Source of the DNA: an uncultured candidatus Porisulfidus sp.
Lineage (GTDB): Bacteria; Pseudomonadota; Gammaproteobacteria; Poriferisulfidales; Poriferisulfidaceae
NCBI GenBank assembly: GCA_965116025.1
Contig: OZ220480.1
Location: forward strand, 1,408,001 to 1,472,000
Length of the DNA stretch: 64,000 nt
Direction of reading: 5' to 3'
Shown: piece by piece, positions 27,369 to 64,000 of the stretch
How the letters are laid out: each line of letters starts with the position of its first letter
How positions within the stretch are numbered: position 1 is the first letter of the stretch
The notes under the pieces: generated by a model
Database searches by the model: none
The model's input: only the letters and a program-made list of their open reading frames with translations
Told to the model about the DNA's origin: nothing
Translations under genes and position numbers: made by a program

Positions 27369-29213
27369 ATGGGATGGTTTGATCGAAGAAAAACGGTTTT
27401 CGTGGATTCCGACATTCTCGTCGTCGGCGGAGGCATGGCCGGTTGCGGCGCCACGTACGAATCCAAATACTGGGGGCGGGACCTGAAAGTAGTGTGCGTC
27501 GAGAAGGCGAACATCGAGCGCAGCGGGGCGGTCGCCCAAGGCCTGTACGCGATCAACTGCTACATGGGCATGCAGTGGGGCGAGAACCAGCCGGAAGACC
27601 ACGTCCGCTACGCGCGCAGCGACCTGATGGGACTCGTGCGGGAGGATCTCGGCTACGACATCGCCCGGCATGTCGATGCCACGGTGCACAAGTTCGAGGA
27701 ATGGGGGCTTCCCATCATGCGGGACCCGGAGACGGGTCGCTACCAGCGCGAGGGGAAATGGCAGATCATGATTCACGGCGAGAGCTACAAGCCGATCGTC
27801 GCCGAGGCCGCCCGCAAGGCCGCCAACGAGGTCTACAACCGAATCATGGTGACCCACCTGCTGATGGATGAGACGAAGCCCAACCGGGTGGCTGGGGCCG
27901 TTGGCTTCAACGTCCGCACCGGGGACTACTACGTGTTCCGCGCCAAGGCCGTGATCGTCTGCGCTGGCGGAGCCTCGCACATTTACAAGCCCCGCTCCGT
28001 GGGAGAGGGCATGGGTCGCACTTGGTACGCGCCATGGAGCAGCGCGTCCGCCTACGCTCTGCCGATCCTGGCCGGCGCCAAGATGACGCAGATGGAGAAC
28101 CGGATCGTTCTCGCTCGCTTCAAGGACGGCTACGGACCGGTCGGCGCCTACTTCCTGCATCTCAAGACCTACACGCAGAACGGCCTTGGCGAGGAATACG
28201 AGTCCAAGTGGTACGACCAGACCAAGGAGCTCGTCGGCGACTACATCGACCAGCATCCGACCCCGACTTGCTTGCGCAACCACGCTTTTCTCGAGGAGGT
28301 GAAGGCGGGCAGAGGTCCCATCCGCATGGTCACCAAGGAGGCGTTCCAGGACCCGCACAAGGAAACCGTGGGCTGGGAAAACTTCCTTGGCATGACGATC
28401 GGGCAGGCGGTGGTCTGGGCGTCCCAGAACATCGATCCCAAGGAGATCAACCCGGAACTAACGACGTCCGAGCCCTACGTCATGGGGTCGCACGCGACCT
28501 GCTCGGGCGCTTGGGCGAGCGGTCCCTCGGATTTCGCGCCCTCCGACTATCAGTGGGGCTACAACCGGATGATGACCGTCGACGGTCTGTTCGGGGCCGG
28601 CGACACGATCGGCGGAAGCGCGCACAAGTTCTCGTCCGGGTCCTATACGGAAGGACGCATCGCGGCCAAGGCGGCGGTGAATTACGTCAATGACCTCAAG
28701 AACGAGAAGCTCAAGGTTGGCGAGAAACAGTATCAGGACCTGAAGAAGGTCATCTACAAGCCCTTGGAGAACTACGAGATCGGCCGCAACGAGATCGTGG
28801 CGGGCACCGTATCGCCTAGTTACATCCTGCCGATCCATGGCCTCCAGCGTCTCGAGAAGATCATGGACGAGTACGTCGGGGGGATCGGCACCAACTACAT
28901 GACCAACGGACCGTTGCTCACGCGCGGGCTGGAGTTGCTGGACATGCTGAAGGAGGATATCGAGAACATTGGAGCCGAGGATCTGCACCAGCTGCAGAGA
29001 GCTTGGGAGCTCCAGCACCGTTTCCTGGCCTCGCAGTCCGTGGCCCACCACACGATGTTCCGCAAGGAAACGCGCTGGCCGGGATATTACTATCGTGGCG
29101 ACTTCCCGAAGCTGGACGACGAGAACTGGCACTGTTTCACCCTGTCGCGCTACGACCGCGATTCCGACAGTTGGGAAGTGGAGAAGGCTCCGGTCCACCA
29201 TATCATCGACTAG
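27369..29213 (+). CDS. aprA: Adenylylsulfate reductase alpha subunit
   Basis: RSGAVAQGL, WQIMIHGESYK, HKFSSGS, RKETRWPGYYYR. Confidence 0.97.
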   Translation: MGWFDRRKTVFVDSDILVVGGGMAGCGATYESKYWGRDLKVVCVEKANIERSGAVAQGLYAINCYMGMQWGENQPEDHVRYARSDLMGLVREDLGYDIARHVDATVHKFEEWGLPIMRDPETGRYQREGKWQIMIHGESYKPIVAEAARKAANEVYNRIMVTHLLMDETKPNRVAGAVGFNVRTGDYYVFRAKAVIVCAGGASHIYKPRSVGEGMGRTWYAPWSSASAYALPILAGAKMTQMENRIVLARFKDGYGPVGAYFLHLKTYTQNGLGEEYESKWYDQTKELVGDYIDQHPTPTCLRNHAFLEEVKAGRGPIRMVTKEAFQDPHKETVGWENFLGMTIGQAVVWASQNIDPKEINPELTTSEPYVMGSHATCSGAWASGPSDFAPSDYQWGYNRMMTVDGLFGAGDTIGGSAHKFSSGSYTEGRIAAKAAVNYVNDLKNEKLKVGEKQYQDLKKVIYKPLENYEIGRNEIVAGTVSPSYILPIHGLQRLEKIMDEYVGGIGTNYMTNGPLLTRGLELLDMLKEDIENIGAEDLHQLQRAWELQHRFLASQSVAHHTMFRKETRWPGYYYRGDFPKLDDENWHCFTLSRYDRDSDSWEVEKAPVHHIID

Positions 29214-29371: not shown

Positions 29372-31129
29372 TTACGCGCCAGTCTCAGCAGATCTGGATC
29401 CTGTCTTTGTGCCCTTTTTGAATGCTCGCGAGGGCTCGTCGTTCGTCTCCAAAACGTTCCAAAGAAGCGAATCAAGCGCCTGTTGGCGGGTGGCGTTCGC
29501 GGTTTCCAAGTTGGTTTCCAACCGGTCACAAAGCCCCATGAGTTCATCGACTTTGGCGACAATGCGACGTTGCTCATCGAGAGGAGGAAGTGGAAATGGC
29601 GAGTTTGCGAAATACTCTTTTGGCACACGCTTTTGACCAGCTGTTCCAGTCATTTTGAGGATCCCAGGTTCTATGTATAGAGGGGATTTTAGAAATAGCA
29701 CTATGTAGCGTGCGTTTACAAGAACTGGACGAACGACATGAAGTTCTGTTGTTCCACTTCCGATGCCGCCAGTCAGATTTTGAAACACTACAGATTTACC
29801 ATTCTCGAAGCAAGGTGTGATCTTTGCTACACCAACATCACCTTCCGCAAAATGAGTGTAGCCTTTCTTGATCTCGCCCCAGAGATGTTTCATATGGCCA
29901 TTTTTTAGGCCCCATTCTGCTGGAATCAAGGGCATTGGAACAAAGGAGGCGACATGATCGTCGCCAATATCGTTTCGTGGGCTGAGTACGCCAATATTTG
30001 CTATCCTCGTCCAAATCCATGTATCTGGTAGAAGGAACGGATGGCCGTTTACGCTGAGCGGCTTTAGGATCTTTAGGCTTCTCATTTTAGGACGATGCGC
30101 CAAGAGTGCTTTCTTCTCCGTAATCCTCTTGAGCAATTCAAATGCTGGTTCATCCGCCGGGTTCTGTGCGATCAATTTCCCCTGAACCGCGAGGTTCAGT
30201 ATGGTCTGCCGGAGTTGTTTAATCTGATCGACACGAATTGTCAGAGAGGGAAGGGTATTGATTGCAAAACGCGCATGCGAGAGAAATGCCACATTGCTCG
30301 TATCTTGTATGGCCAGCCGGCTAAAACTGGCTTTGGCCAGACGACTTCGAATCTTTTCTCGCATTATCCATTTTGTGGCAAGCTGGTCGCAGAGCTCCAT
30401 AAGCTCAGCGACCTTAGCGACGATGCGGCGTTGTTCGGCGAGAGGTGGGAGAGGAAATGGAGCGGTGATAGCGTCTCTAGTTCTCAATCTTGGCATCTTT
30501 GTTCCTTGCCCAAGTTGTGTCACATAATCCACAAAATCGGATCGTCGTAGGGCTAGCGCACAATATTCTGGGCAAATAGGGATGCATGTGCGTAGTGCTA
30601 CGATTTCAGTCGTCGAATATCCTGGCTTGTCGGCGACTAGGACCTTGTTGAGATACGGTCGTAATTTTCCATAGAGAATATCGTGTGCTCGAAATTCTGA
30701 TTTCGTACTTTTGGGTTTTCGTTCAGTAGTAGCAATTCGGCGAAGTAATCTCCCTGTCTCTTTTTCAATATCTTCCAGTTCAAGTAACCACGATTTCGGC
30801 TTCAGGGTACCAGGCTTTCGTTTGGTGCCAGCGTCATATAAAAAGATGTTGCCGAGTGCTATCCACCGCCATGAATCCGGTAGACTAAAAGGTGCTTCGG
30901 TCATTTTCACCCAACTGGCTTGATTTTTCTTCACCACTCCGGCTTTTGCTAACCGTTTTTTCTCTTGTATCACCCGTTTCAGCAATTCAGACGCTGGCTC
31001 ATCTGCCGGATTTTGTTTGGCCAATTTCCCTCGGACTGCGAGATTTAGTACGAAGCGACGTATACTTGGAATAGCATCTGGATCTTTGTCAGCGTAATCA
31101 AAGAGCGCGAGCAGGCGTTCGATATTCAT
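29372..31129 (-). CDS. hsdS: Type I R-M specificity subunit
   Basis: Two TRDs each followed by PFPLPPLxEQRRIVAKV; repeated LNLAVxGKLxxQNPADEPA; ATG 31129 overlaps HEPN stop (ATGA). Confidence 0.93.
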   Translation of the reverse strand: MNIERLLALFDYADKDPDAIPSIRRFVLNLAVRGKLAKQNPADEPASELLKRVIQEKKRLAKAGVVKKNQASWVKMTEAPFSLPDSWRWIALGNIFLYDAGTKRKPGTLKPKSWLLELEDIEKETGRLLRRIATTERKPKSTKSEFRAHDILYGKLRPYLNKVLVADKPGYSTTEIVALRTCIPICPEYCALALRRSDFVDYVTQLGQGTKMPRLRTRDAITAPFPLPPLAEQRRIVAKVAELMELCDQLATKWIMREKIRSRLAKASFSRLAIQDTSNVAFLSHARFAINTLPSLTIRVDQIKQLRQTILNLAVQGKLIAQNPADEPAFELLKRITEKKALLAHRPKMRSLKILKPLSVNGHPFLLPDTWIWTRIANIGVLSPRNDIGDDHVASFVPMPLIPAEWGLKNGHMKHLWGEIKKGYTHFAEGDVGVAKITPCFENGKSVVFQNLTGGIGSGTTELHVVRPVLVNARYIVLFLKSPLYIEPGILKMTGTAGQKRVPKEYFANSPFPLPPLDEQRRIVAKVDELMGLCDRLETNLETANATRQQALDSLLWNVLETNDEPSRAFKKGTKTGSRSAETGA

Positions 31130-31485
31130 GTTTCCCGGGATGTCCCCAATTCGGCAAGCAATACCTGAACGACCCGATGAAGTTCTGGTAGGTCGGTTTC
31201 GGCATAATTCCAAACGCGATCCGGGATTACGATCGTATAGCCATGAATTAACAGATTTCTAAAATCAATGATAGCGCGTAGAGAAGGAATTCTTTTGGCG
31301 ACATCTGGGCAAGCATCATTTAGTTTGTTTAATGCCTCTCCTATAATCTCAAATTTTCGCTCGACTGCAGCTTGTGTTCGAGTGTCGTTCATGTAGGCCG
31401 TGAGGTCCATGCCATCCATGAAACGCTCAATGTCTAAAGTTGCCCGTTCGACATCTTTCAACAGGACTCGAGGATCAGGAGACAT
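31126..31485 (-). CDS. HEPN/DUF86 ribonuclease toxin inside R-M operon
   Basis: AAVERKFEIIGEAL, RNLLIHGY. Confidence 0.9.
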   Translation of the reverse strand: MSPDPRVLLKDVERATLDIERFMDGMDLTAYMNDTRTQAAVERKFEIIGEALNKLNDACPDVAKRIPSLRAIIDFRNLLIHGYTIVIPDRVWNYAETDLPELHRVVQVLLAELGTSRET

Positions 31486-33281: not shown

Positions 33282-35681
33282 TTAGGCGGCTTCCTTGTAG
33301 AGAGCGGTTTGGAGATCTCGTACCGCCCGCTTGAAGCCTCGTTTGTTGCCGAAACGGCGGATTAACTGGAGTGGAGTTCCAATCATATTAAACGGAGGGG
33401 TTCTGAGTACATTGGCATTGTCTAGATCAAGTACACCATCATCGGCATATTTGTCGAGCAGTTTGTCAAGCACGTTGCGACATTGTCGTCCATATTTAGT
33501 GAATACGTCGAGTTTTTTTACGTTTTCGGCTCGCTCGCGGCGAGTTAGAGGCTTGGAATCAAAAGCGATATAGCAAATAAGGTCGAAGGGGTCTAACTTC
33601 TCCATACCTAGTTCTTCCGCGATTACAGACAGTACTAACCCCTCGGCCTGCATGCCGTCAATCATTGCCTGTTTGCGTTCGGCACCGCTCCACCGCATCA
33701 GGAAATCATCCAAACTAGAGAAGCGCTTTCGCAGTTTCTTTTTCGTGAAGCCTCGTAAAGTTTCAGTTCTGGGCCTGCCATTCTTGTCTACATAAACAAC
33801 TCGTTCGGCGATGATGTGTGCATGAATGCCATCAATATAGATTTTTTTTCCGCCCCTTGGAGGTAAGGGATCTTGGCTGACTTCAATTTTGCTACCATCA
33901 AAAAGATCGGTAGGTTGGATGGAGTCGCCATTGAGTGGAGGGGCTATAGGTTCATCCTCCTTGGGTGTATATATCTGCACCGGGTCACCATCGAATTCAG
34001 GATCCGCGAAATGGTTGGTTGCGCCGCGAAAGTCAAGAAGAGTGAAGTAGTGCTTATGCGTATCTTCGTGCACCCTGGTGCCACGCCCGACGATTTGCTT
34101 GAACTCGGTCATTGATCCGATATTGCGGTCGAGCACGATTAACCGACAGGTTTGCACGTCAACGCCAGTGGAGAGCAGTCGTGAAGTTGTGACCAGAACG
34201 GGATATCTAGATTCTGGATCAATGAAATTGTCCAGCTCGTTCTGTCCATCTTGATCATCACCAGTGATGCGCATGACGTAGCGCACGTCTTCGCCGACAA
34301 GATCAGCGTTCTCGTTAATCAATGCCTGACGCATTCGTGCGGCATGTTCTTGGTCGACACAAAAGATAATAGACTTCTGGAAGCGGTCGCTACTCTCTTT
34401 CAAAAAGGCCGTTATTTTTTGCGCCACCAGTTTTGTGCGTCCGTCTATGACTAGTGTGCGGTCAAAGTCTCTGATACCGAAAATCCGATCATCAACTTTC
34501 ACGCCGTCGCGGTCAAGTTGGTCTTTTTTCGGGCGATAGCCATCGATATCAAGATCTATATGGACCTTTATCACTTTGTAGGGGGCAAGGAAACCGTCGT
34601 GGATGCCTTGTTTCAACGAATAGGAAAATATTGGATCTCCGAAGTAGGCAATATTGGAGATGTATTTGGTTTCCTTTGGCGTGGCGGTAAGACCTATTTG
34701 GGTCGCTGATGAGAAGTATTCAAGGATTTCGCGCCAAACCGAGTCCTCGTCCGCGCTACCCCGGTGACATTCATCTATCACGATCAAATCGAAAAAACTT
34801 GGCGAGAACTTTCGATATATCTTTTTGTGATCTTCCGGGCCTGTTATCGATTGATACAAAGCGAGATAGACTTCATAGGCGTGATCAACGCTCACGTTTT
34901 CGCCATCACGTGTTATTGTTCCCGTTTGCGTGGACAGTTTTGCCATCGCCTTTCCAAACGGGCTGAAATCATTCACTCTCGCTTGGTCGACCAAAACCTT
35001 ACGATCAGCGAGAAACAGGATCCGCTTCTTGCGTCCCGCCTTCCACAGTCGCCAGATGATCTGAAAAGCGGTATAGGTTTTTCCTGTTCCCGTGGCCATA
35101 ACGAGCAGAATTCGGTCCCGCCCTTTGGCGATAGCCTCGGTCACCGCGTTGATAGCATTTACTTGGTAGTAGCGTGGGGTTTTGCCTCCGGCATCCTCAT
35201 GGTAATCCTGAAGCACGATCTCTTCGGCTTCAGGATTCAAGCCTTTCCAAGCGCGATAGCGTACCCACAGGTTATCAGGCGAGGGAAATGCGTCCATGGC
35301 GAGGTTTCCTTCCATCCGCTCACTCGAGCCGGTACGGTCGTGACACACGAATCCGTTTCCATTGGATGAGAACGCGAAAGGAACCTCCAATGCTTCAGCA
35401 TAGGCGAGTGCTTGTTGCATACCATCGCCAACAGCATAGGAGTTTTTCTTCGCCTCAATTACCGCGATGGGCAGACGGGGTTTGTAGAAGAGGACGTAGT
35501 CGGCGCGCTTGCGCTGTTCGCGTGTTGCTAACTTGCCGCGCACAACGATACGGCCAGCAGTGAAGCTATACTCTTCGAAGATTTGTTGCATATCCCACCC
35601 CGCTTTATACAAAGCGGGAGTAATGAATTTGGTGCAGATATCGCGTTCTGACAAATTTTGCGGGTTCACCCTAGTATTCAA
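33282..35681 (-). CDS. hsdR: Type I R-M restriction subunit (EcoAI/EcoEI-like)
   Basis: LSERDICTKFITPAL, ADY..IEAK nuclease motif, MATGTGKT, DECHRG, LTATP, QIVGRGTR. Confidence 0.96.
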   Translation of the reverse strand: MNTRVNPQNLSERDICTKFITPALYKAGWDMQQIFEEYSFTAGRIVVRGKLATREQRKRADYVLFYKPRLPIAVIEAKKNSYAVGDGMQQALAYAEALEVPFAFSSNGNGFVCHDRTGSSERMEGNLAMDAFPSPDNLWVRYRAWKGLNPEAEEIVLQDYHEDAGGKTPRYYQVNAINAVTEAIAKGRDRILLVMATGTGKTYTAFQIIWRLWKAGRKKRILFLADRKVLVDQARVNDFSPFGKAMAKLSTQTGTITRDGENVSVDHAYEVYLALYQSITGPEDHKKIYRKFSPSFFDLIVIDECHRGSADEDSVWREILEYFSSATQIGLTATPKETKYISNIAYFGDPIFSYSLKQGIHDGFLAPYKVIKVHIDLDIDGYRPKKDQLDRDGVKVDDRIFGIRDFDRTLVIDGRTKLVAQKITAFLKESSDRFQKSIIFCVDQEHAARMRQALINENADLVGEDVRYVMRITGDDQDGQNELDNFIDPESRYPVLVTTSRLLSTGVDVQTCRLIVLDRNIGSMTEFKQIVGRGTRVHEDTHKHYFTLLDFRGATNHFADPEFDGDPVQIYTPKEDEPIAPPLNGDSIQPTDLFDGSKIEVSQDPLPPRGGKKIYIDGIHAHIIAERVVYVDKNGRPRTETLRGFTKKKLRKRFSSLDDFLMRWSGAERKQAMIDGMQAEGLVLSVIAEELGMEKLDPFDLICYIAFDSKPLTRRERAENVKKLDVFTKYGRQCRNVLDKLLDKYADDGVLDLDNANVLRTPPFNMIGTPLQLIRRFGNKRGFKRAVRDLQTALYKEAA

Positions 35682-53361: not shown

Positions 53362-54185
53362 CCGTCGACGGCCTCGCGCAGAAGGGCGTTGATACCGACC
53401 TTGCTACGGGTCTTCTCGTCAACTTGCTTGACGATCACCGCGCAGGCCAGGCTGTAGCGGCCATCGGAGGCGGGTAGCGAGCCCGGCACGACCACGGCTC
53501 CCGGGGGAACTCGGCCATAGAGAATCTCGTCGCGCGCGCGGTCGTAGACGCGAGTGCTCTGGCCGATGAACACGCCCATAGAGATGACCGCGCCGCGTCC
53601 GACGATCACGCCCTCCACGATCTCCGAGCGAGCGCCGATGAAGCAGTCGTCCTCGATGATCGTGGGGGCGGCCTGCAGGGGTTCCAGCACGCCGCCGATT
53701 CCAACGCCGCCGGAGAGGTGGACATTCTTGCCGATCTGGGCGCAGGAGCCGACCGTCGCCCAGGTATCGACCATGGTTCCTGAATCGACGTAGGCCCCAA
53801 TGTTCACGAAACTAGGCATCAGCACCACCCCGGGGGCCAGATAGCTGCCGAAGCGCGCCGTCGCCGGGGGCACCACCCGGACTCCGCAACGTTCCAGATC
53901 TTCGCGAGCGCAGGCGGCGAAACGCCCCGGCACTTTGTCGCGATAGCGGGTATGCCCGGCCTCGATGATCTCATTGTCGGCGATGCGGAATGACAGGAGC
54001 ACGGCTTTCTTGAGCCATTCGCGCACCACCCAGCCACCCGCGGCGGGTTCAGCGACCCGCAGGCGGCCGTCGTTAAGTCCTCGCAAGGCTTCCTGGACAG
54101 CATCGCGCACCTCGACGGGCGCGGAGGATGGCGTCAGGCTCGCGCGTTCATCGAACGCCCGCTCAATGGTGGACTGGAGGTTCAT
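53358..54185 (-). CDS. dapD: Tetrahydrodipicolinate N-succinyltransferase
   Basis: [32 protein letters not shown]. Confidence 0.97.
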
Positions 54186-54267
54186 GGCAGGGAGCTGGTC
54201 TATGACTATGGCCGTTGATTTTACAGGAAGACCGCGGAGGCCGCCCTAAAAAAGTTCCGGAGTCTTG

Positions 54268-54273
54268 TATAAT
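54268..54273 (+). promoter_or_regulatory. -10 box of autotransporter gene
   Basis: TATAATccgc 39 nt before ATG 54313; same TATAATccgc context at 63838. Confidence 0.55.
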
Positions 54274-54312
54274 CCGCGCCTGACCGCATCATTGTTGCAG
54301 GGAAATTCCACC

Positions 54313-57300
54313 ATGAGATATTATCTGACCGCTTCCAATGCCGCTCACACCTCGTCGCACGCCGCCTCGTCGTCTTCCGGCGTAGGGGGGGGGGGGGGGG
54401 GGGGGGCATAGCCCTCGTTTCTTGACCGTTCTGGCCGGCTTCACGGCCTTTCTCTCGCTTCCACTGATCCCGTCCTCCGTCGAAGCGGAGGAGTGCGGCG
54501 ATGTCAGCACCACCAAAACGGTCACCTGCGACGCCGCGACCTACGGCGGCACCAGCGCCACCGATGCCAACCCCATCGAGTACACGGGTCAAACGGGCGG
54601 TCTGACGCTGACCGTGAGGCCTTCCGGGGAGATGACGACCATCAAGTCGTTCCTTCCTCCCGAGAATCCCGCCACCTCTCCCGCTGATCTCACCCAAGGC
54701 CGAAATTCCGGGATCATCGTGATCGGTCGCGGGGCGTTGACGGTCAAGCTGGAAGGCAAGGCGAGGATCGTGAACGAGGCGGGGTGGACGAATACGGCGG
54801 GCACGTACTCTTCTGGTAGCCAACAATACAGCGCGACCTTCATCGAACCCCGGTATCGGCGGGGTAGCAGGAACTACGGGATCGTTGTCGAGAATGACGA
54901 AGCCGGCTTGAGCTCAAGGACGGACAAGATCGAGATCGTGATCGGGGCCGAGGCGCGGATCGGCACTGAGGAGATTCCGGTGGGGCGTTATGGGGTGTTC
55001 GCGTATTACAGAAACGCGTCCGCCGAGGGCGACATGTTGATCGTGAACCGGGGCGAGATTTACGGATATTACCGAGGAATCTACGCGCACCACGAAGGGT
55101 CTGGAGATATCACCGTCGAGACGGCGAAGGGTAGCGTGACCAGTAAGGGGATTTTAGTCAATACGTCCAATAGTGGAGAGGGAGGGGACATCCGCGTCAC
55201 GAACCACGGGACGCTCCAGAGTCCGAGGCAACGACCGCTGTACGCGAAAACGCTCTCGGGCGGAGAGGCCACGCTGTATGATGGTGATATTCCGCTCTAC
55301 AATCAAGATGGCATTCAAGTCCAACACAGGGACGAGACCGAGGGCGCCGCCGATAACCCCAGCAGCACGATCACGATCACCTCGAGCGGAGATATTCGGG
55401 CCCGCAGGTATGGCATCAGCATCGTTACGCGAGGGGACGAGGATTCCGTGGTTCCGGTGACGGTGGACGTGACGGGTGGCGTCATCACGGCGGGCGAGGC
55501 GGACAAGCGGAGAGAGGGGGAATTGGGGAACGGAATTTACGTTCATTCCGATTCCCACAGCGGTGGGCTCATCAAGGTGGATCTCGCGGGCGAGATCGCC
55601 TGGACGGGGATTGAGGGAGACGGGATCTACGTCTACCGGACCAACTCGGCTGATTCCGACGACCCGGCCAATCAGGATGTCGAGGTGACGCTGAAGTCTG
55701 GCGCGCGGATTGGCATGAATGGGGACGAGCCGACCGTGGGCAGGCACGGCGTATGGATCGAGCAGTGGGCTCACGGGGGAACGCTCCGGGTGACCATCTC
55801 CGAGGGGGCGAGGATCGGGACCACGGAGACTCCAGTTGGCGTGCATGGGGTGCTCCTCGAGACCGACCACAGGGATGATGAGAACGACATGATGATCTCC
55901 AACAAAGGCTTGGTTCACGCGAGAAGTTCCGGGCTAGTCGGTTGGAACCATGGTTGGGGAAACGTGGTCGTGGAGCACCTGAAAGGCGAGATCATCGCGG
56001 GCGACGCGCCCAACTTGTTCGAGAATCTAGGGGAAGATGACCAAACGCAGCTGGTGCTGAAGCCCCGGACCGCCGGCATCTTCGCTTTCCATGGAGGCTC
56101 GAAGCTCCAGACGCTTCCCGGCGAGACGTTCGAAGACAACGACCCCTCCACCTACACAGCCGAGGTCGGAGAGATCAAGATCACGTCGAAGGCGGACATC
56201 ACGTCGAAGGGCGACGGCGTTCTCGCCTATGTCAAAGACATTGATGTTCCAAACGATATCGTGTTCATCCCGATCATGATCGACGTTGCGGGCGGGACGA
56301 TCACGGCGGACGGGCATGGGGTTTACGCGGAGACGGCCACTACCTACGAGGACGAGGACGCGCCGAAAGCTGGGAGGATAGAGGTCACGGTGGGGGAGAT
56401 GGCGACGATCCGTGCCAAGAAGGACGGGGTGCATGTCAAGGGCATGCGGACCTTCGCGTCCGACCACGCCCGGAAGGGGCAATACGACCAGACGGTCACC
56501 ATCAACGGCAAGGTGATGGGCGGCGGTGGAGACCACGCCGGCGTTCGGGTGGTGAAGGGCGGGACGCTGGTGATCGGGAGCGGCGGGCCGGAGGCGCGGC
56601 TCGGGGCGGCCTCGGGCGTGGCGGTCCACGCGGACGGGGCTCTGACCATCACGATGAGCAAGACCGCCGACGGGCGCATCGGCTGGGTCGTGGGGAAGAT
56701 CCAGAACGGCGACAGTGGTGACACGACCTTCGCGGGCGTGGAAGTGGGGAAGACGTACCTTCTTCAGGATTGGGAGGAGACGAAGGGGATATACGACACG
56801 ACGATCGAGCGGAAGGTGACCTTGAGGGAATACGCGGACGAGGACTATCACGAGTTCGAGCTGGTGTCTCAAGAGGAGATCGTTCGGGAGTACCATGATC
56901 GGGCTCGGGTGTACGAGGCGCTGCCGTCGGTGCTGCTGGAGATGAGCGCGCCGGGCGGTCGTCAGGCGCGGTTGTCGGCGACGCGGGACGGCGGGGGCGC
57001 GTGGGCGCGGGTTTTGGCGAGCGACGGCGAGCGTGAGGCGGAGACGTCCACGACGGCGATGGACACGGCGGGGCATGATCTGTCTTGGGACTTCGAGCGC
57101 TGGGGCGTGGAGACGGGCTTCGCCGTTCCCACGGACCTGCCAGGCGTGACGCTGGGGGTGAGCGCGCATTATCGAGACGGCGAGGCGGACGTCGAGCGCG
57201 GCGGGAAGATCGAGGTCTCGGGCGTGGGCGTTGGGGCTTCGGCGACCTGGCGTGGTGAGGACGGCTGGTACGCGGACGGGGAGCTCTCGTACACGCGTTT

Positions 57301-57796
57301 CGAGGATGTCGATTTGAGTTCGGAGGCGCGCGGGATGGTGGCGTCCGGTCTGGACGGAGACGGCCACGCGATCGGCGTGGAGGTCGGCAGGCGGCTGGAG
57401 ATGGACGGCTTCGCGCTGGTTCCGCGCGGAGGATTGACGTGGACTTGGGTGGACGTCGATGGCTTCGATGACGTGTCGGGCGTTACGGGTAGCGGTCGGG
57501 TGTCGTTCCGCTCGGAAGACAGCGCGCGGGCGCGGGTTGGAATGTTGCTGGAGAATGGCCAGACGTACGCCTCATTGGACGTGGAGCGTGAGCTGTCGGA
57601 GAGCCGGGAGGTGATGGCGTCGGGGTCGCGCTTGCGCTCGGAGGTGGAGTCTACGTGGGCGCGCGTGGGCGTTGGGGGCGTGATGGTCTTGGATGAGAAG
57701 GGAGAGTCGACGCTCTCGGGGGAGGCGCACTACGCGGCGTCGGACGGCGACAATGAGGATTATGGCGCGAGCGTCCTGCTGAAGGTTCGCTTCTGA
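54313..57796 (+). CDS. Phase-variable autotransporter, out of frame as assembled (G22); main ORF 54422-57796
   Basis: ATG 54313 + 24 codons + G22 gives GCA TAG; G21 would join it to the signal peptide (..LTVLAGFTAFLSLPLIPSSVEA), passenger and barrel ending LLKVRF. Confidence 0.88.
54385..54406 (+). repeat. Poly-G tract (22 G)
   Basis: Direct count. Confidence 0.9.
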
Positions 57797-63834: not shown

Positions 63835-63843
63835 TGATATAAT
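63835..63843 (+). promoter_or_regulatory. Extended -10 promoter of third autotransporter
   Basis: TGaTATAAT 34 nt before ATG 63878. Confidence 0.6.
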
Positions 63844-63877
63844 CCGCCTTGATCATTCATCGTCGTGAGAGGCTTTC

Positions 63878-64000
63878 ATGAGAGCTACCCTGCATTTTTC
63901 TGATACCGTCCGCGCCGCGCTTCGCGGGGCTTCGTCGTCTTCCCGCGTAGGGGGGGGGGGGGGGGGGGGGCATAGCCTCCGTTTCCTGACCGTTCTGGCC
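63878..64000 (+). CDS. 5' end of a probable third autotransporter, in frame (G21), truncated by window edge
   Basis: MRATLHFSDTVRAALRGASSSSRV-G7-HSLRFLTVLA; leader homologous to 54313-54436. Confidence 0.75.
   Translation, partial: MRATLHFSDTVRAALRGASSSSRVGGGGGGGHSLRFLTVLA
63950..63970 (+). repeat. Poly-G tract (21 G)
   Basis: Direct count. Confidence 0.9.

Follow-up and report, generated by a model that had tools for sequence, protein, structure and literature searches.

A long poly-G tract as a candidate phase-variation switch in the leaders of 24 autotransporter genes of a putative sponge symbiont

The sequence analyzed here, hereafter the window, is a 64,000-nucleotide (nt) stretch (positions 1,408,001-1,472,000) of a single 2,018,984-bp contig with a GC content of 62.7%. 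Its subject is an autotransporter gene, located between dapD/dapE and glnD/map, whose 5' end contains a run of 22 guanines. An ATG at position 54313 opens a short leader that leads directly into this run, and the long open reading frame (ORF) of the autotransporter lies on the other side of it. The elements of this locus, in window coordinates, are the following.

54268-54273, plus strand: −10-like box TATAAT, 45 nt 5' of the leader ATG, read from the sequence
54299-54304, plus strand: weak Shine-Dalgarno-like AGGGAA, 9 nt 5' of the ATG, read from the sequence
54313-54384, plus strand: leader of ATG plus 23 codons, MRYYLTASNAAHTSSHAASSSSGV, an N-terminal extension preceding the tract
54385-54406, plus strand: G22 homopolymer, the candidate slippage switch, which would encode Gly7-8 in frame
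54407-54487, plus strand: signal-peptide coding segment HSPRFLTVLAGFTAFLSLPLIPSSVEA in the +1 frame, with n-, h-, and c-regions read by eye
54409-54411, plus strand: TAG that closes the leader frame at G22 and at any 3n+1 length (the frame reads GCA TAG)
54423-54425, plus strand: TGA that closes the frame at 3n+2 lengths (G20, G23), overlapping TTG 54422-54424
54488-57796, plus strand: mature autotransporter (beta-rich passenger, linker helix, C-terminal barrel), with the stop codon at 57794-57796

The bases directly 3' of the G22 tract are CATAGCCCTCGTTTCTTGACCGTTCTGGCC, and the longer post-tract stretch of this copy reads CATAGCCCTCGTTTCTTGACC. With 22 guanines, the ORF that begins at ATG 54313 ends after 32 amino acids, and the window copy is OFF in the assembly. 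The 1,124-amino-acid ORF (54422-57796, TTG start) lies in the +1 frame relative to this ATG, and a tract of G21 or G24 would therefore join the two. The signal peptide of the joined product would probably be cleaved after VEA. A strict two-hexamer scan of the region of the 54268 box found no full sigma-70 promoter. When we re-read the sequence, the original prediction proved correct in all its coordinates for the ATG, the 24 codons, the G22 tract, the off-frame stops, and the 1,124-amino-acid ORF. It had also stated that an ORF caller would start the gene in the wrong place, and the public gene call is indeed the 1,124-amino-acid product from TTG 54422.

A second copy of the same arrangement, also predicted, is found at 63878-64000, where the box, the ATG, the 24 codons, a G21 tract, and CATAGCC are all present.

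63838-63843, plus strand: TATAAT box, read from the sequence
63878-63949, plus strand: leader of 24 codons, MRATLHFSDTVRAALRGASSSSRV, preceded by GAGAGG at 63867-63872
63950-63970, plus strand: G21 tract, in frame (ON) in the assembly
63971-64000, plus strand: start of the signal-peptide segment, with CATAGCC following the tract, cut by the end of the window

The ORF from ATG 63878 extends past the end of the window and, when followed on the genome, encodes 1,186 amino acids.

These two loci belong to a much larger set. Across the genome, 24 of the 45 long G/C runs share one cassette ahead of paralogous autotransporter ORFs, with the order −10 box, Shine-Dalgarno motif, ATG, 20-26 codons, Gn, signal peptide, passenger, and beta-barrel. 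The aligned flanks of the 24 copies bear out the proposal of a dispersed family with a common leader cassette, and the tracts are as unusually long as had been supposed, at 16-27 nt: one each of 16, 19, 20, 24, 25, 26, and 27 nt, three of 17, two of 21, four of 22, and eight of 23. A TAnAAT box is located 36-62 nt 5' of the ATG in 23 of the 24 copies, and purine-rich GAGG, AGGA, or GGGA motifs precede the aligned ATG in most of them. The ATG itself and an open frame up to the tract are present in every copy. The leader had been described as exactly 24 codons long, which holds for the 11 copies with an ATG-to-tract distance of 72 nt; the others deviate from it, with 69 nt in eight copies and 60, 66, 70, 75, and 78 nt in one copy each. 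Insertions and deletions in the leader keep the frame, the sole exception being copy 1586276, which has one extra A beside the tract. The leader peptides end in a common motif, RAALRGASSSSR(I/V), and the window leader, MRYYLTASNAAHTSSHAASSSSGV, is the most divergent of the 24.

Downstream of the tract, the DNA follows the consensus CATAGCC(T/C)CCGTTTCCTGACCGTTCTGGCC, and the encoded peptide in all copies conforms to HS(L/P)RFLTVLAG(F/L)TA...(A/V)xA. By eye, every one of the 24 copies has HSxR as its basic part, FLTVLAGFTA... as its hydrophobic core, and VEA or AEA as an AxA-type end, from which we take this segment to be a probable Sec signal peptide. The tract, when in frame, encodes Gly5-9 across the family. 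In 20 of the 24 copies, the two other frames reach a stop after 1 and 6 codons, in agreement with the predicted conservation of the off-frame stops, and in 22 they do so within at most 9 codons. All 24 downstream ORFs are intact, with lengths of 890-1,166 amino acids, and the frame is broken at the tract alone. Four copies are in frame in the assembly, namely 1062605 (G24), 1471950 (G21, the second copy in the window), 1498267 (G21), and 1586276 (the extra A plus G17). A change of +1 or −2 bases would restore the frame in 11 of the 20 out-of-frame copies, and one of −1 or +2 in the other nine. The TTG at 54422 is peculiar to the window copy: among the 23 copies with a matching stretch, the others read CTG at this codon and one has a deletion there. 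The start chosen by the gene caller is therefore not that of the family, in which no start codon 3' of the tract is conserved.

Two copies differ from the rest immediately behind the tract. In 545805 (minus strand) and 756392 (plus strand), one base has been lost after the tract and an ATG or a TTG gained directly behind it (GCA ATG TCC and GCA TTG TCC), and these copies might be expressed from the post-tract start at any tract length. With respect to replication, GC skew indicates an origin at about 0.65-0.70 Mb and a terminus at about 1.70 Mb. The cassette genes are co-oriented with replication in 22-23 of 24 cases (copy 1239809 is the exception), and their poly-G accordingly lies on the leading strand; no replication-strand bias is seen among the 21 long runs elsewhere in the genome.

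The identity of the product was confirmed at the levels of sequence and fold. The sole Pfam match of the 1,124-amino-acid protein is the autotransporter barrel PF03797 (residues 861-1092, E = 5.6e-26), which corresponds to 57002-57697 in the window. An AlphaFold2 model built with 33 homologues has a mean predicted local distance difference test score (pLDDT) of 80.1 and a predicted template modeling score (pTM) of 0.70; in it, a helix at residues 826-848 precedes the C-terminal barrel, and the passenger is almost all beta. Foldseek matched the model to the EstA, AIDA-I, BrkA, EspP, Hbp, and NalP translocators at a probability of 1.00, with the NalP translocator 1uyn/1uyo among the structural matches. 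The beta-barrel translocator of type Va (classical) autotransporters is thereby recognized by both Pfam and Foldseek, and the original assignment of the product as an autotransporter stands. Pairwise comparison of the 24 paralogs gives mean identities of 41-60% across most of the passenger, compared with 85-94% for the barrel. Such a combination of an apparently surface-exposed, variable part with a constant anchor is the usual pattern. The N-terminal extension resembles ESPR in position and length only, as a search of the first 200 residues of an ON copy found no match to this domain (PF13018) at E values up to 10.

The lengths of the tracts stand out against the homopolymer content of the genome. 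In the 2.02-Mb sequence, 9 G/C runs are 8 nt long and 45 measure 15-39 nt, with no run at all in the interval of 9-14 nt. Under a model of independent bases at the same size and GC content, ≈178 runs of 8 nt, ≈56 of exactly 9 nt, ≈80 of 9-14 nt, and 0.08 of at least 15 nt are expected; with 45 long runs against 0.08, the pattern is not due to chance. Slippery runs of intermediate length (9-14 nt) appear to have been purged, and those of at least 15 nt kept. Runs of 8 nt are also depleted, ≈20-fold relative to expectation. The minimum of 15 nt looks like the lower tail of a length distribution centered on 22-23 nt rather than a G-quadruplex threshold. Closely related copies differ in tract length: G17 and G20 occur in paralogs with 95% flank identity, G23 and G19 in a pair with 93% flank identity, and G23 and G17 in a pair whose downstream bases are identical at 100 of 100 positions, all of these being comparisons of gene copies within one genome rather than of alleles. 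Together with the conservation of the layout in other genomes, these differences suggest that the tracts are hypermutable. Loss of mismatch repair was considered as a cause of the long runs and rejected, because mutS and mutL score above cut-offs here and in all 27 of the f1 and f3 genomes searched. Both genes are missing from the ≈1-Mb f2 genomes, which are free of tracts. The presence of mutS and mutL where the runs occur thus means that the runs are not a by-product of lost mismatch repair.

We propose that the 24 autotransporter genes of this sponge symbiont are subject to classical slipped-strand translational phase variation, a reading that we regard as probable (≈0.8) from the sequence evidence. 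Slipped-strand mispairing at replication would add or remove guanines within a repeat that is located inside the 5' coding region of all 24 copies (G16-G27, beginning 20-26 codons past the ATG). Only one of the three length classes (3n in most copies) would join the ATG to the signal peptide, and the others would stop after 1 or 6 codons; the frame analysis yields exactly this division. Because the extension that contains the tract would be removed with the signal peptide, the length of the tract could vary while the mature protein remained unchanged. Each gene may then switch ON and OFF independently of the others, in a heritable and reversible manner, and changing combinations of the 24 proteins, whose passengers are variable, would appear at the cell surface across a population. 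In the OFF state, early termination of translation would likely be followed by Rho-dependent polarity.

Several observations weigh against this proposal. Length variation at a single locus was not seen, since the short-read contigs stop in or at the tract. The number of ON copies (4 of 24) is soft and not significantly below one third (P = 0.059). Assembly lengths of tracts of 16-27 nt may err by 1-2 bases, and the individual ON and OFF states are therefore unreliable. The last 13 leader codons vary equally at the three codon positions (0.139, 0.124, and 0.129) and thus give no signal of amino-acid-level selection for translation of the leader; the case for its translation is made by the conserved Shine-Dalgarno motif and ATG, the open frame, and the frame-preserving insertions and deletions. 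A 23-nt post-tract motif, allowed up to 3 mismatches, was found in none of 40 relatives, and a search of two public collections of metagenome and genome contigs, from which the genome itself may be excluded, gave no exact match to a 30-nt motif. A protein query against public genome contigs likewise returned no match.

Among the other explanations, regulation at the level of RNA is unlikely. Here, RNA polymerase would slip on the 16-27-nt run, or ribosomes would shift on GGG, every copy would give some in-frame product at any DNA length, and the tract would be a dimmer rather than a switch; such grading may also coexist with slippage at the DNA level. The run far exceeds the 8-9-bp RNA:DNA hybrid and realignment is physically possible, but documented bacterial slippage occurs mainly on A/T runs. 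The stops that follow immediately in both off-frames in 20 of 24 copies also fit a switch rather than a dimmer. In endosymbionts, one study describes transcriptional slippage at homopolymers (PMC2831843), and a further analysis, according to its abstract, covers A and T runs only (PMC1088944).

We consider it quite improbable that the tracts, although real, have a constant in-frame length in the cells and that the out-of-frame lengths are miscalls of the assembly. Long homopolymers are error-prone on every sequencing platform, and short-read contigs from two runs of one study end at the 20th and the 22nd G of the window tract, with none spanning it. These contig ends may reflect either branching or poor reads, so we count them neither way. 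A study of such tracts likewise indicates that annotated G-tract lengths differ from those of the true population (PMC9187656). A range of 16-27 nt between near-identically flanked paralogs is, however, too wide for miscalls of ±1 base. The homologues in three other assemblies, of which three of seven have the leader and four of seven are truncated, are as mixed states predict, and a fixed Gly5-9 linker needs no pure GGG run in all 24 copies, given that other glycine codons exist.

Still less probable is a start of translation after the tract (at TTG 54422 in the window and at CTG elsewhere), with the G run serving as an element of the 5' untranslated region such as a Shine-Dalgarno mimic, a G-quadruplex, or a spacer. 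In the window copy alone, TTG 54422 overlaps the off-frame TGA (TTGA), which would permit termination-reinitiation at G20 or G23, and copies 545805 and 756392 have their ATG or TTG directly behind the tract. Against this, the codon in question, 15 nt from the end of the tract, is CTG rather than TTG in the other copies with a matching stretch, and no post-tract start is conserved. A protein initiated there would also be missing the basic HSxR n-region of its signal peptide. All 24 copies have the Shine-Dalgarno motif and ATG upstream, as does the unrelated Paracoccaceae family described below.

Attenuation through a leader peptide is about as improbable. By this account, an early stop in the leader would let a hairpin at 54433-54448 terminate transcription, as in pil1 of Streptococcus gallolyticus. 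The hairpin, GGCCG-N6-CGGCC with a T-rich tail, is located inside the signal-peptide segment; it is one of two terminator-like sites (54402-54416 and 54433-54448) where 0.2 are expected, and most copies retain its GGCCG...CGGCC arms. This retention, however, is already explained by the conserved LAGxTA that the arms encode, and any role of the hairpin in RNA would be inseparable from that coding constraint. The T tail is weak and unconserved (other copies read GCTCTC, ATTCTC, and ACTCTC). Over 54290-54470, the predicted RNA fold does not surpass that of shuffled sequence (z = +1.16), and Rfam has no family over 54150-54600 at E values up to 1. Since the leader fuses with the main ORF when ON, a separate attenuator is unneeded. 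We rejected assignment to the pil1 type, as there is no separate leader ORF, the T tail is weak, and the fold is like that of shuffled sequence. Finally, the notion that the out-of-frame copies are pseudogenes in decay, left by an overexpansion of the family, has the 20 of 24 broken frames in its favor but hardly any credibility, because every copy has an uninterrupted ORF after the tract with the lesion at the tract alone, which argues against decay, the barrels are as similar among paralogs as given above, and a change of a single base would suffice to turn any OFF copy ON.

Slipped-strand switching is also a plausible context for the 21 long runs outside the cassette, 13 of which could be placed at a gene or promoter. 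The main groups are listed here by genome position.

1747365 (minus strand), 385736, 1154002, 1839275, 1986077, and 137569: six fn3-rich giant proteins, with runs of C18-C29 that are poly-Pro in the sense strand
11481, 605518, 968262, and 1683699: restriction and defense genes (Type ISP restriction-modification, N6/N4 DNA methylase, a DndC-like PAPS-reductase-domain protein, DUF499)
772596-772615, minus strand: promoter spacer TTGACA-A-G20-TATAAT, before a GmrSD-family restriction gene
789208-789222, minus strand: promoter spacer TTGACA-G15-TATACT, before an RTX-repeat protein

The fn3-rich proteins span 1,256-6,364 amino acids from stop to stop, the largest having been scanned over its first 5,000 residues, and one of them has an autotransporter barrel. 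At these loci, the run lies between an ATG-led leader and a signal peptide, with LYGGGAEAV following the run in several. Locus 1747365, with TATAAT, a Shine-Dalgarno motif, an ATG, 23 codons, C19, LYGGGAEAV, and a signal peptide in succession, reads as the same design as the cassette with a different leader. The run is inside the Type ISP gene and inside the DNA methylase gene, and it is at the start of the PAPS-reductase-domain, DUF499, and HlyD-family genes. The Type ISP, methylase, DndC-like, and DUF499 genes are candidate phase-variable defense systems, and the methylase is a possible phasevarion. Both promoter spacers are off the 17-nt optimum in the assembly. In known phasomes, repeats of this kind are found in surface-protein genes and in restriction or defense genes; the other tract loci are typical contingency-gene classes. 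Since the genome uses long runs at 21 further places, the cassette is one part of a set of contingency loci that extends over the whole genome.

Besides housekeeping genes, the window contains aprA. The ThrS of the organism has 89% identity to the homologue in a sponge metagenome-assembled genome (MAG) assigned to 'Candidatus Porisulfidus sp.' and 88% identity to that in another sponge MAG. These features agree with the sulfur-oxidizing, possibly symbiotic bacterium that had been suggested. The aprA gene (27369-29213) adjoins a Type I restriction system, with an EcoAI-family HsdR at 33282-35681 (minus strand) and an HsdS-like ORF at 29372-31213 (minus strand). At E values of 1e-40 or lower, the autotransporter family is found in this genome only among 53 of the order. 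The genomes of the same genus have 1-2 autotransporters with 32-36% identity, mainly in the C-terminal part. The closest outside homologues, on three other long contigs, have 47-54% protein identity. In three of seven such homologues the gene call includes the leader, followed by Gly8, Gly6, or Gly7 and then by (H/Y)SPR(L/F)LSVALAGL or NKRRFLTVALAGL; the other four were called N-terminally truncated just past the signal peptide, as would be expected for out-of-frame alleles.

More distant relatives retain parts of the arrangement. An alphaproteobacterial MAG of the Paracoccaceae (OZ220486.1) has 20 paralogous loci whose products are 35-49% identical to the family, and 19 of the 20 carry a G9-G14 tract, mostly with a Shine-Dalgarno motif, an ATG, and a short leader before it and a signal-peptide-like segment after it. 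Single homologues in a 'Candidatus Poriferihabitaceae' MAG and in another gammaproteobacterial MAG have no run of at least 8 nt. Of 145 distant autotransporter representatives, five have an N-terminal Gly or Pro run of at least 5 within the first 110 residues, and in four of these a clear signal-peptide-like segment follows. The occurrence of the family in the Paracoccaceae MAG and its absence from the other 52 genomes of the order hint at horizontal spread between sponge symbionts. Long runs as such are a trait of the clade: runs of at least 15 nt occur in 21 of 41 genomes, among them 11 of 15 of the same genus, 9 of 12 of family f3, and 0 of 12 of family f2 (≈1 Mb), although some of the matches in fragmented MAGs sit at contig ends and are possible artifacts. 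Closed genomes of the same genus contain several runs, mostly poly-C in the sense strand, followed by signal-peptide-like segments. The closed genome of one relative has 74 runs of at least 15 nt, and in that of another, one run was assembled as C70.

A broader interpretation, which we put forward as tentative and rather doubtful, is that of a portable, switchable export leader, consisting of a start codon, a short leader, a long G/C run, and a signal peptide, that is common to sponge symbionts of several bacterial classes. It would gate libraries of adhesin-like and eukaryote-like surface proteins as well as defense genes, and, as the patchy distribution of the autotransporter family would imply, would have been transferred horizontally within the sponge microbiome and then expanded. 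A lineage-specific regime of mutation and selection might hold runs at 15 nt or more and purge those of 9-14 nt, possibly with graded expression at the RNA level through polymerase slippage or a G-quadruplex. The run lengths to be accommodated reach 39 nt here and 70 nt in the assembly of a relative, with mismatch repair intact.

The 24-gene library of surface proteins, with one candidate switch per gene, takes up ≈4% of the 2-Mb symbiont genome. This suggests that life in a filter-feeding, phagocytic, and phage-rich host selects for bet-hedging of the kind associated with mucosal surfaces. Gene callers mis-start or truncate such genes. Because MAGs built from short reads are interrupted at the tracts, the feature can be seen only in closed long-read genomes. 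Our literature search, which did not extend to subscription journals, turned up no publication on phase variation in the symbionts of sponges.

In human pathogens such as Neisseria, Haemophilus, Campylobacter, and Helicobacter, contingency loci are textbook knowledge. The closest parallel in organization is the opa genes of Neisseria, a multi-copy outer-membrane family with a slippage repeat inside the leader or signal-peptide coding region of each copy. The family described here shares with opa a repeat of its own in the leader region of each copy, the potential for independent switching, and a combinatorial surface. The opa genes differ, however, in their CTCTT pentamer, small 8-stranded barrels, about a dozen copies, and occurrence in a human pathogen or commensal, and the two families have no sequence relationship. 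Neisseria pilC1/pilC2, NalP, AutA, and MspA likewise have a translational ON/OFF switch in the form of a homopolymeric G or C tract early in the coding sequence, close to the signal peptide, and NalP is in addition a type Va autotransporter with the same barrel fold as the window protein. The tracts of these genes, however, are ≈8-14 nt long and belong to single genes, compared with 16-27 nt in a 24-copy family. The promoter-spacer switches of Bordetella fim and Neisseria porA/opc resemble the two TTGACA spacer loci, unlike the cassette, whose tract is coding.

Outside these pathogens, the sortase-pilus genes of Bifidobacterium breve provide a second parallel. A G tract there separates the Sec-signal coding region from the rest of a surface protein in a beneficial host-associated bacterium, and only some lengths give the full product (PMC9187656). 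The same study describes G10-12 tracts at two loci of Gram-positive pilins, with heterogeneity that was measured, and finds database G-tract lengths to be unreliable (PMC9187656). Bartonella badE likewise has mononucleotide repeats early in the ORF of an autotransporter adhesin, presented in that work as contingency loci in host adaptation; unlike the genes described here, it encodes a trimeric (type Vc) protein, its runs are 7-12 nt long, and its switching was shown by experiment (PMC11466379). In prokaryotic genes, according to the study of slippage cited above, poly(G) and poly(C) runs of more than 2 nt are in general under-represented (PMC2831843). Overall, the cassette family of this genome is distinct from known systems in its tract length of 16-27 nt, its copy number, the shared module from promoter to signal peptide, and its host setting.

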